A stretch of DNA of 22,560 bases, taken from IMG/VR virus record IMGVR_UViG_2896028454_000001, positions 67,450 through 90,009 of that record. One strand, written 5' to 3'. Shown here one piece after another: positions 10,739 to 13,178 of the stretch. Origin of the DNA: a virus. Taxonomy: Duplodnaviria > Heunggongvirae > Uroviricota > Caudoviricetes. Each line of letters starts with the position of its first letter. Position 1 is the first letter of the stretch. The position numbers and the translations under genes are program-made. The notes beneath the pieces are model-generated. The model saw only the letters and a program-made list of their open reading frames with translations. It had not been told where the DNA came from and made no database searches.

Positions 10739-11698
10739 ATGCCCATCGTCTACCTGCCACCCACACCACCAGGTAGGCCCGGGGTCGGGCTCCCTCCCCG
10801 CCCACCCGACTACACCACCCGCATCACCTGGACCTCCTCGGCCGGGAGGGTCACCACCCTCACCGACTGGCGGGACGGGTACACGCTGTTGGACGGGGCC
10901 CGAGGGTTGGGGATGCCCGAGTACGAGTTCTACCGGCGCGTGTCGGGGGTGCTCGACGGTGACCAGGTCGCGGGGGTGCGCGCCCTGTCCCGGGAGATTT
11001 TCCTGCCCATCCGTGTCCACGGCCGAGACCGGGGCGACATCATCGACCGGCGCCGCCGGTTGGCCGCTGACCTGGACCCGATGGACGTCAACGGCGGCGG
11101 CCGAGGCGTGTTGACCGTCAAGGAGTTCGACGGCACCTCCCGGCGGATCGTCGCCCACTACGAAGCCGGTGCTGAAGGCGAGATGGCCCGGGACGTGGAG
11201 GGCCTGTTGTGGGCCACGTTCGGGCTCACCTTCCGCGCCGAACAACCCTTCTGGGAGCTGGACCCGGTGGAGATCATCTACCGGGGGCCGGCCAACGACG
11301 GCCGGTCATGGCTGCCGATCCTCCCGCTTCAGGTGCGCGAGTCCGCGGCGATCGGCCCCGGTATGGGGATCAGGGTCGCCGGGTCGGTGCGCACGTGGCC
11401 GGTGTGGACGTTGAAGGGCCCGATCGCGCCGGGGGCCCGGCTGGAAAACGTCACCACGGGGAAGTGGATGGAGATCACCGCCCCGTTGGAGTCGGGGGAT
11501 GAGCTGGTGATCGACACCCGGCCGCGCCGTAAGTCGGTGCGGCTCAACGGTGACCGGGCGTACCAGCACCTCGCGCACCCGGGTTCCACGCTGTGGCCGC
11601 TCCCGCCGGGAGCCAACACGGTCGACGTGACCGCGTCCGGGTTGGCGGAGGAGTCTCGGCTGATCCTGCGGTACACACCGCTTGCGCCGACAGCATAA
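10739..11698 (+). CDS. Distal tail protein (Dit, siphovirus tail component)
   Basis: First gene after the tape measure. Motifs LDGARGLGMP, FGLTFRAEQPFW, LVIDTRP and LWPLPPGANTV. Confidence 0.85.
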   Translation: MPIVYLPPTPPGRPGVGLPPRPPDYTTRITWTSSAGRVTTLTDWRDGYTLLDGARGLGMPEYEFYRRVSGVLDGDQVAGVRALSREIFLPIRVHGRDRGDIIDRRRRLAADLDPMDVNGGGRGVLTVKEFDGTSRRIVAHYEAGAEGEMARDVEGLLWATFGLTFRAEQPFWELDPVEIIYRGPANDGRSWLPILPLQVRESAAIGPGMGIRVAGSVRTWPVWTLKGPIAPGARLENVTTGKWMEITAPLESGDELVIDTRPRRKSVRLNGDRAYQHLAHPGSTLWPLPPGANTVDVTASGLAEESRLILRYTPLAPTA

Positions 11699-11930
11699 AA
11701 GGATGGGCTTGGCCGTAGAGGTGTTGCGCTGTTGAAGATTGTCAACACACACAAAAGTCTTCAACGTAGACGGCCCCGAAAGACCGTTGATATGAAGCGT
11801 TGTTGAAATGCACCAACACATACAAAAGGCTTCAACGTAGACAGCCCCGAAGGGCCGTTAGGTCGCTTGCCTCAAACGCAAGGTCAGAGATCCAAACAAC
11901 TACCTTCAACGTGGACGGCCAAGCCCACTC
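11697..11930 (-). ncRNA. Candidate structured ncRNA / CRISPR-like mini-array with 71-nt periodicity
   Basis: Low-GC intergenic island. CTTCAACGTRGACRGCC at 11759, 11830 and 11904. UUCG hairpins on the minus strand. Terminal inverted repeat GGGCTTGGCCGT (11705-11716) / ACGGCCAAGCCC (11915-11926). Ends in UUUU on the minus strand. Confidence 0.6.
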
Positions 11931-11935
11931 CCCAA

Positions 11936-11964
11936 ACAGTAGTCGCACCCTACGACACCCGCAA
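11936..11964 (-). promoter_or_regulatory. Candidate sigma70/HrdB-type promoter for the minus-strand RNA
   Basis: TTGCGG (11964-11959), 17 nt, TACTGT (11941-11936). The predicted start (~11929-11930) coincides with the edge of the element. Confidence 0.5.
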
Positions 11965-11987
11965 CCGGTCCGAGGAAGAAGGTGGGC

Positions 11988-13178
11988 ATGGACGAATGGA
12001 CAATCCGGGTACGCGACGCGAACCGGGAGATGATCGGCGAGATCGACGACGAACAAGAGCTGGAGATCCGCGACCGCCACCTCGGCCACGGGGCATGGAA
12101 GATTGTCGCGGACGCCGACACCGACTCCGCGGCCCTCCTCGAAGAGGGCGACGGCATCGTGTTCGAGATCAACGGCCAGACCGTGTTCTCCGGGCCCATC
12201 ACCCGGCACGTCGCCGAAGTCAGCGACGACGAAGCCGGGACCGACCGGCCGGACGGCGCGGAAACCGTCACCTTCACCGGCATCAGCGACACCAGCGCGT
12301 TCCGTCGCATCATCTACCCCGACCCCACCCGGGCCATCACCACGGCGGGAGTGAAACACCCCGTCGACCGCACCACCCTGCGCGGCCCCGCCGAAACCGT
12401 CATCGGCACCCTCATCGACCAGCAGGCCGGGCCGTCCGCGCTCCCCACCCGCCGCCACCCCGGCCTGGTCATCCCCACCAGCCAAGGGCGCGGCCCCCAC
12501 ATCACCAGCTCGGAACGGTTCACCGACCTGCACGAGCACGCGTTCGCCCTGGGCGCCGGGGCGAACCTGGGTTGGCGGGTGATCCAGGACGGGACCGACC
12601 TGGTGTTCGGCGTGTACCAGCCCCAAGACCTCACCGACCAGATGGGGTTCTCCGTTGAGCTCGGCAACGTCGACACCTACACCTACGAGCTGACTCCACC
12701 CGAGGTCACCCACCTGATCATCGGCGCCGGAGGGCAAGGCAAGGATCGGCTCCTGTTCCAGTACACCCAACCCTCCCCGCTGTGGCCCGGCCTAGTCATC
12801 GAGGAGTTCAAGGACTCCCGCGACTTGAAGCAGGCGCCGGACGGCCCGGACGACACCGAGTGGGTAGACCCGGCCGTGGCCAGCGCCCAGCAGGCCGAGG
12901 AACGGTTCGCGGAGGCCGCCGCACAGCAAACCGTCGCGTTCGACCTGCTCCCCACCGAGGGTCTGGTGTGGGGGACGGATGTTGGCCTGGGCGACCGCGT
13001 CAACTTCGACACCCCCCGCGGGGTCGTGGTTGACCTGATCCGTGAGGTCGTCTACCACCGCACCCCCACGGACGGGCAGCGCATCACCCCGATCGTCGGC
13101 GACGAGATCCACATGCCTGCCACCTACCGGGCGTTGCGCCGGTTGCGCCGAGAGGTCGCCCGTCTGGCCGCCGCCTAA
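11988..13178 (+). CDS. Minor tail / baseplate hub protein (Tal, Gp37-like)
   Basis: Follows Dit. Motifs WTIRVRDAN, VFSGPI, TVTFTGISD, IIGAGGQGKDR and WGTDVGLGDRV. Start is ATG 11988 or GTG 11982. Confidence 0.82.
   Translation: MDEWTIRVRDANREMIGEIDDEQELEIRDRHLGHGAWKIVADADTDSAALLEEGDGIVFEINGQTVFSGPITRHVAEVSDDEAGTDRPDGAETVTFTGISDTSAFRRIIYPDPTRAITTAGVKHPVDRTTLRGPAETVIGTLIDQQAGPSALPTRRHPGLVIPTSQGRGPHITSSERFTDLHEHAFALGAGANLGWRVIQDGTDLVFGVYQPQDLTDQMGFSVELGNVDTYTYELTPPEVTHLIIGAGGQGKDRLLFQYTQPSPLWPGLVIEEFKDSRDLKQAPDGPDDTEWVDPAVASAQQAEERFAEAAAQQTVAFDLLPTEGLVWGTDVGLGDRVNFDTPRGVVVDLIREVVYHRTPTDGQRITPIVGDEIHMPATYRALRRLRREVARLAAA

Follow-up and report, generated by a model that had tools for sequence, protein, structure and literature searches.

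The junction between two tail genes in a prophage of Nocardiopsis, a soil actinomycete, raises the question of why a phage would place a small transcription unit against the direction of its late operon, and what the resulting RNA would do. The window, that is, the whole stretch of 22,560 nucleotides analysed here, is the right end of a 90-kb virus record (IMGVR_UViG_2896028454_000001; 69% GC). The record is a prophage in assembly GCA_009830995.1, in which the flanking genes are named from Nocardiopsis sp. FR26. An element of ∼50% GC fills the gap between the following two genes:

10739–11698, plus strand: dit, distal tail protein gene, left flank (PHROG 33/106; PF22768)
11988–13178, plus strand: Gp37-like minor tail (Tal) gene, right flank (PHROG 538; PF14594)

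The original prediction, made from the letters alone, described the element as an independent leftward unit whose terminal half-repeats pair to give a single closed RNA of 230 nt. The leftward unit and the paired half-repeats are supported, but the reading as one closed RNA missed the precursor of a CRISPR array. The best explanation of the whole, to which we assign a probability of about one half, is a phage moron that imitates type I-G pre-crRNA, titrating Cascade and targeting a conserved block upstream of mtrA.

Insertion site

The dit–tal junction varies among related prophages. Four relatives have a gap of 15–34 bp, an empty junction; two others carry AT-rich genes on the reverse strand (278 and 180 aa), and one further relative has an insert of about 1.7 kb. 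Because the junction is empty or differently filled in these relatives, it is a cargo hotspot of related prophages, reverse-strand cargo genes included, and the element is an insertion. Cargo on the reverse strand is consistent with expression of the element in the lysogen. Adjoining cas genes are absent, the array being flanked by tail genes.

The AT-rich reverse-strand cargo (L454:2120-2956 and L455:2050-2592) has no Pfam match and represents candidate defence or exclusion morons, and different cargo occupies the same junction in another prophage (L168:1879-2739). The left end of the element (11699-11708) resembles the ribosome-binding region before the tail gene (11978-11987), as if the insertion had duplicated the original junction and the extension of the terminal stem had grown from that copy. 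Elsewhere in the window, 9 kb from the array, an Aca2/YdiL-family gene (PF08965; 20955-21359) lies beside a serine recombinase and two unannotated genes, a neighbourhood that is possibly an anti-CRISPR cluster. In FR26, the sequence that directly follows the prophage record contains a lasso-peptide-like cluster (L418:15096-18796) with a small precursor-sized gene, an asparagine synthase-like cyclase, PqqD, a transglutaminase, and a methyltransferase.

Architecture of the element

Read on the minus strand, the element consists of a promoter motif, a 3′ half-repeat, spacer 1, a repeat, spacer 2, a repeat, spacer 3, a 5′ half-repeat, and a U-tract, with the following coordinates and supporting evidence:

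11936–11964, minus strand: promoter-like −35/−10 pair with a 17-nt spacer, predicted start 11930-11929 (sequence; conserved in a related phage)
11915–11927, minus strand: terminal stem, 5′ arm, 13 bp (fold, shuffles)
11903–11920, minus strand: R1, 3′ half of a repeat with stem arm, 4-nt linker, and handle at 11910-11903 (host consensus at 18 of the last 20 nt)
11865–11902, minus strand: spacer 1, ∼38 nt, 3′ half forming a hairpin (diverged homologue in the related phage)
11829–11864, minus strand: R2, whole I-G-like repeat with stem 11858-11852/11847-11841, C(UUCG)G loop, and handle 11836-11829 (host-repeat comparison)
11794–11828, minus strand: spacer 2, 35 nt, 40% GC (hairpin at nt 11–28)
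11819–11828, minus strand: seed of spacer 2, nt 1–10, identical in both phages (TTC-flanked site upstream of mtrA)
11758–11793, minus strand: R3, whole I-G-like repeat with stem 11787-11781/11776-11770, UUCG loop, and 8-nt handle 11765-11758 (host-repeat comparison)
11723–11757, minus strand: spacer 3, 35 nt, 43% GC, paralogue of spacer 2 (spacer comparison)
11711–11722, minus strand: R4, 5′ half of a type I-G repeat (host-repeat comparison)
11704–11716, minus strand: terminal stem, 3′ arm, made of the repeat 5′ arm and a 7-nt extension (fold, shuffles)
11697–11700, minus strand: short U-tract, a weak predicted 3′ end that overlaps the complement of the dit stop (sequence)

A homologous element is present in a second phage, IMGVR_UViG_3300049136_000020, whose Dit is 87% identical; tail proteins of the two phages are 85–87% identical. 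The array of the second phage is one unit shorter, with two spacers, but still has the promoter motif, the ends, and a spacer of each family; the promoter, handles, seeds, and ends are conserved between the two. Scans of viral sequences gave no homologue beyond this phage, and a metagenome scan for homologues gave matches at chance level only.

Every spacer is preceded by a stem and a handle, as the two half-repeats pair through the terminal stem. The predicted cuts leave 11910, 11836, and 11765 as the first handle bases. The claim that the two ends rebuild a repeat stem by pairing with each other holds, with a stem of 13 bp (11704-11716 with 11915-11927) in place of the 12 bp proposed. None of 2,000 shuffles reaches a terminal inverted repeat of this length, and in naked-RNA folds the terminal stem of the full transcript has a pairing probability of ∼1.0. 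In folds of the same kind, the two repeat hairpins of the full transcript reach a probability of only 0.2–0.3, and part of the seed is base-paired both in spacer 3 and in the second phage. The model therefore has to assume folding during transcription or binding of Csb2.

The original prediction placed the RNA on the minus strand on the basis of three stem differences between R2 and R3. On the minus strand, these differences indeed give G-U pairs, one in R2 and two in R3, and the plus strand has A-C mismatches in their place. Both loops are UUCG, closed by a C-G pair in R2 and a U-G pair in R3. The two homologues contain no both-sided compensatory pair. The minus strand folds at −94.2 kcal/mol (z −4.47) and the plus strand at −83.9 (z −4.40); both strands fold better than shuffles, so fold energy alone does not set the strand. 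The predicted promoter is present as a −35/−10 pair at 11964-11959/11941-11936 with a 17-nt spacer, but its score of 8/12 falls under the cut-off of the promoter scan; the related phage keeps the motif with one spacer change, and the DNA just upstream has diverged. The U-tract also exists, but it is only 4 U long, two of them complementary to the dit stop; the related phage has 3 U, and the tract is at best a weak terminator. A promoter and terminator scan of the element called neither.

Spacers 2 and 3 are duplicates that have nt 1–15 in common save position 8 and differ mostly in the hairpin loop. The hairpin of spacer 2 (nt 11–28) is kept in all three copies of the spacer-2 family. The GC content of the phage spacers is 40–46% vs 67% for host spacers, only 0.5% of which are so low.

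Relationship to type I-G arrays

With a motif from the 3′ half of the repeat, long arrays are retrieved from Nocardiopsis lucentensis, N. quinghaiensis, N. sp. CC223A, and Streptomonospora, their period being close to 72 nt. The retrieved arrays flank csb1, csb2, and cas3g with the I-G extension; in N. sp. CC223A, an array is present without csb1-csb2-cas3g. Over their last 20 nt, the phage repeats agree with a host consensus repeat at 17–18 positions. Their layout is a 7-bp stem followed by a 4-nt linker and an 8-nt handle, and the spacers fall within 34–38 nt. The cutting geometry of Csb2 is likewise a 7-bp stem, 4 nt, and an 8-nt handle (10.1101/2022.08.08.503147).

Several of 376 host I-G spacers match the phage family, the best at 32/35 on this prophage, and stem from other Nocardiopsis strains. 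A 5′ TTC accompanies five of the seven distinct host spacers that match at ≤7 mismatches. These matches fix the PAM, the repeat–spacer boundary, and the minus strand as the crRNA sense, and mean that I-G attacks these phages. The strand originally predicted is thereby confirmed independently, as host I-G spacers in this orientation carry the 5′ TTC PAM.

The element resembles the Nocardiopsis I-G arrays (csb1-csb2-cas3g) in the 3′ half of the repeat, the stem-linker-handle arrangement, the 71–74-nt period, and a TTN-type PAM. Unlike these arrays, it has no cas genes, leader, or full protospacer; its repeats are 1 nt shorter, with UUCG loops and G-U pairs, and its spacers are AT-rich and structured. 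That it is a cas-less, type I-G CRISPR-derived mini-array on the minus strand is almost certain, and that it is expressed and processed in I-G hosts is likely. The I-G system is found in only 6 of 51 Nocardiopsis genomes, and no Csb1 named from FR26 is present among the Csb1 protein matches.

The Nocardiopsis I-G loci (L143, L144, L146, and L299-L302) are compact, consisting of csb1-csb2-cas3g with cas3g fused to a Cas3-extension domain, and sit between two divergent arrays with very variable repeat loops. No cas1, cas2, or cas4 is recognised beside the I-G genes in the ORF listings of three loci. One Nocardiopsis genome that lacks csb1 has a stand-alone Cas3-extension (NF049934) gene with a solitary I-G-like repeat ∼1.5 kb downstream (L311/L363; G244:C171:7606-7645, minus strand); the repeat closely resembles R2, and the resemblance extends into the 5′ flank. 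The locus is possibly a remnant of an I-G locus or a variant one, and may be connected with the origin of the phage repeats. Two genomes in which csb1 was not found contain I-G-type arrays whose repeats are strongly degenerate (L037 in G003; L313 in G232). None of the conclusions drawn here depends on the unpublished genome G129.

The site upstream of mtrA

The TTC motif followed by nt 1–10 of spacer 2 is present once per genome in 48 of 51 Nocardiopsis genomes, including all six that are I-G-positive; the reversed control pattern has 4 matches in total in the 51 genomes. The site lies in a near-invariant block, 222–330 nt upstream of mtrA in each locus inspected, and the genes downstream are mtrA, mtrB, and an lpqB homologue. 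On the other strand, a divergent operon starts 141 nt from the site (one locus measured) and encodes a protein with a GPDPase membrane domain, DUF4129 and DUF4350 proteins, and a MoxR ATPase. Spacer 2 forms Watson–Crick pairs with the site at positions 1–10 and 13–14, with a wobble at 11 and position 12 flipped out, and spacer 3 has an extra wobble due to the G at position 8. Seed positions 7–12 appear to cover a −10-like hexamer on the mtrA strand.

The seed control consisted of all TTC-led 10-mers of four layouts with 7 A/T (4 × 1,024 = 4,096 seeds) in five genomes. The spacer-2 seed is the only one of the 4,096 that is present in all five test genomes. One other is present in four; the control-layout site common to four of the five falls within a sequence that looks like a tRNA gene. 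Three seed patterns were tried before the mtrA match emerged. The chance of an exact seed match is near 0.1%, with an upper estimate of 2–3% if all degenerate variants are allowed. Judged from sequence, functional binding at the mtrA block is close to an even proposition.

A reading of the target block as an MtrA box was not adopted, as only one half-site fits well. In Streptomonospora sp. PA3 (G004) and another I-G-positive relative, G121, the putative counterpart of the block has a different base at protospacer position 1, and so does one mtrA locus (L421) in a third genome. Given these position-1 differences, the exact seed match is mostly specific to the host genus of the phage. Nucleotides 11–14 of spacer 2 (window 11810-11818) also match target nt 16–19 with five target bases looped (L414:5500-5509), a hint of low weight that spacer 2 may have descended from the mtrA site by deletion. 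In Streptomyces, MtrAB controls sporulation, the osmotic response, and antibiotic production (PMC13189361, PMC5650626); we found no link between MtrAB and phage fitness in the literature.

Search for other targets

The 13 csb1 upstream regions, the leaders, and the 20-kb I-G loci harbor no convincing match of seed and PAM. The best match in a csb1 region is 9/10 with a TTT PAM and a mismatch at position 1, in one more distant relative. Seeds without a PAM occur at chance level across the 51 genomes, and the prophage contains no self-targets with a TT PAM. Spacer 1 has no conserved target, its matches being scattered and at control level. Sites of the spacer-3 type occur four times, in single genomes, and have no relation to mtrA or to one another.

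Proposed mode of action and alternatives

In the lysogen, the leftward promoter would produce an RNA of 230 nt. Host Csb2 would bind both UUCG hairpins as well as the long-range terminal stem, cutting 4 nt past each stem and releasing three RNAs with 8-nt handles from two whole repeats and one split repeat. The short 5′ fragment would stay paired to the 3′ end and serve as the 3′ stem of the last RNA. The RNAs would load Csb1/Cas3g in competition with immune crRNAs, which would be diluted either way. Guides of the spacer-2 family, which both phages carry and which is duplicated here, would pair through ∼10–14 PAM-proximal bases upstream of mtrAB-lpqB. So few paired bases would not suffice for cutting; the bound complex would stay in place and reduce transcription of mtrAB-lpqB and/or the divergent membrane-protein/MoxR operon. 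As with CreR and Cracr guides, the proposed R-loop would not be long enough to permit cleavage. By analogy with MtrAB in Streptomyces, our guesses at the benefit to the phage are an altered envelope that blocks superinfection or a delay in development. The more specific proposal that the end-paired I-G array makes Cascade repress a core regulator, steering envelope or development and not silencing immunity genes, is tentative, and leans slightly towards doubt. No guide-directed repression by a natural I-G crRNA-like RNA was found in the literature.

The mtrA match could also be due to chance, or be left over from the origin of the spacer, in a pure decoy: a Racr-like array whose RNAs titrate Csb2 and Csb1. 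Such a role is in keeping with the self-structure of all spacers, a spacer 1 without target, a phage family under I-G attack, and the Aca2-family gene 9 kb away. A decoy needs no particular seed, yet nt 1–15 are the best-kept part of the spacer-2 family, and the seed aligns exactly, in register and beside the correct PAM, with a site found across the genus; moreover, the handles are complete, and Racrs are solitary repeats (PMC10651486). We regard a pure decoy as unlikely. Quite improbable is a classical Cracr array that represses a cas promoter or that of a CRISPR-guarding toxin in unsampled Nocardiopsis strains. The published Cracr architecture does have 2–3 spacers, near-duplicate spacers, and conserved seeds, and a weak site with a TTG PAM and a 7-nt match to spacer 1 occur within 5–27 kb of I-G loci in two genomes. 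The csb1 upstream regions and I-G loci described above speak against such a target, and neither a CreR-like mini-array of the host nor, among 458 host spacers, a similar spacer was found.

Viral mini-arrays usually act as inter-virus weapons, in which fully matching spacers direct host Cascade against rival phages or plasmids, and the spacers here are of full length (35–38 nt). However, full protospacers are absent from the collections searched (50,697 phages, 72,556 plasmids, IMG/VR, and the 51 genomes), and the spacers diverge between copies yet keep their hairpins, unlike what is expected of full-length guides; a weapon is the most remote of the readings. An inactive relic, a MITE-like DNA element, or a structured RNA unrelated to CRISPR would agree with the 13-bp terminal inverted repeats, with a host, FR26, that may lack I-G, and with the Rfam search suggested earlier, which gave no match at gathering thresholds. 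The MITE named as the fallback in the original prediction is rejected on the grounds of a single copy in the prophage, the same site in both phages, and no homologue in the 51 genomes. The repeats are I-G repeats, and the promoter, handles, seeds, and ends have been conserved between phages whose tail proteins are 85–87% identical, which leaves these readings very improbable.

Comparison with known systems

In the literature examined, known viral regulatory crRNA-like RNAs silence CRISPR-linked promoters and none is type I-G; within an incomplete coverage, no example directed against a core host regulator came to light. The closest relatives of the proposed mimic are the Cracr arrays (Liu et al., bioRxiv 10.1101/2024.10.29.618823), which are also phage-borne and cas-less, with 2–3 spacers and degenerate host repeats. 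Cracr guides are defined by 9 or more PAM-proximal pairs, and spacer 2 has 10/10 with TTC. The element and Cracr arrays further resemble each other in matching a promoter region over a short PAM-proximal stretch and in probably competing for Cas proteins, and the element has a prophage moron site outside the CRISPR-cas locus and a conserved predicted promoter motif. It departs from Cracr in two defining respects. Cracr arrays target cas or creT promoters, whereas the predicted target here is a core chromosomal regulator; and Cracr copies host CreR/CreA, whereas the element has no host counterpart that we could find. Cracr arrays are reported for V-A, I-F, I-E, I-C, and I-B, in contrast with the I-G type described here, and the outer repeat of the element is split and closed through long-range pairing.

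The viral regulatory mini-arrays of Shmakov et al. (bioRxiv 10.1101/2023.03.03.530964) share a conserved seed with distally diverged spacers, and the mini-array of a Moraxella prophage has three repeats and two near-identical spacers. These mini-arrays are I-B and I-F1, with no mention of I-G, and their targets were sought only within CRISPR-cas loci. Racrs (Camara-Wilpert et al., PMC10651486) share a phage RNA that mimics host repeats and may sequester Cas6- and Cas7-type proteins. A Racr is a solitary repeat without a target, and the Racr paper includes no I-G example; the element has two whole repeats and two halves, which make three handle-bearing units, and a PAM-flanked seed match.

Should the mtrA target prove real, it would mean that phages are able to turn host Cascade into a programmable repressor of core physiology. 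It would also explain the orphan spacers of Cracr arrays, the targets of which were sought only near cas genes, and provide a natural case of CRISPR interference without cutting by I-G, in which Cas3 is part of the complex. If the match is due to chance, the element is still an I-G example of the recently described class of anti-CRISPR RNAs, with an unusual end-paired design.
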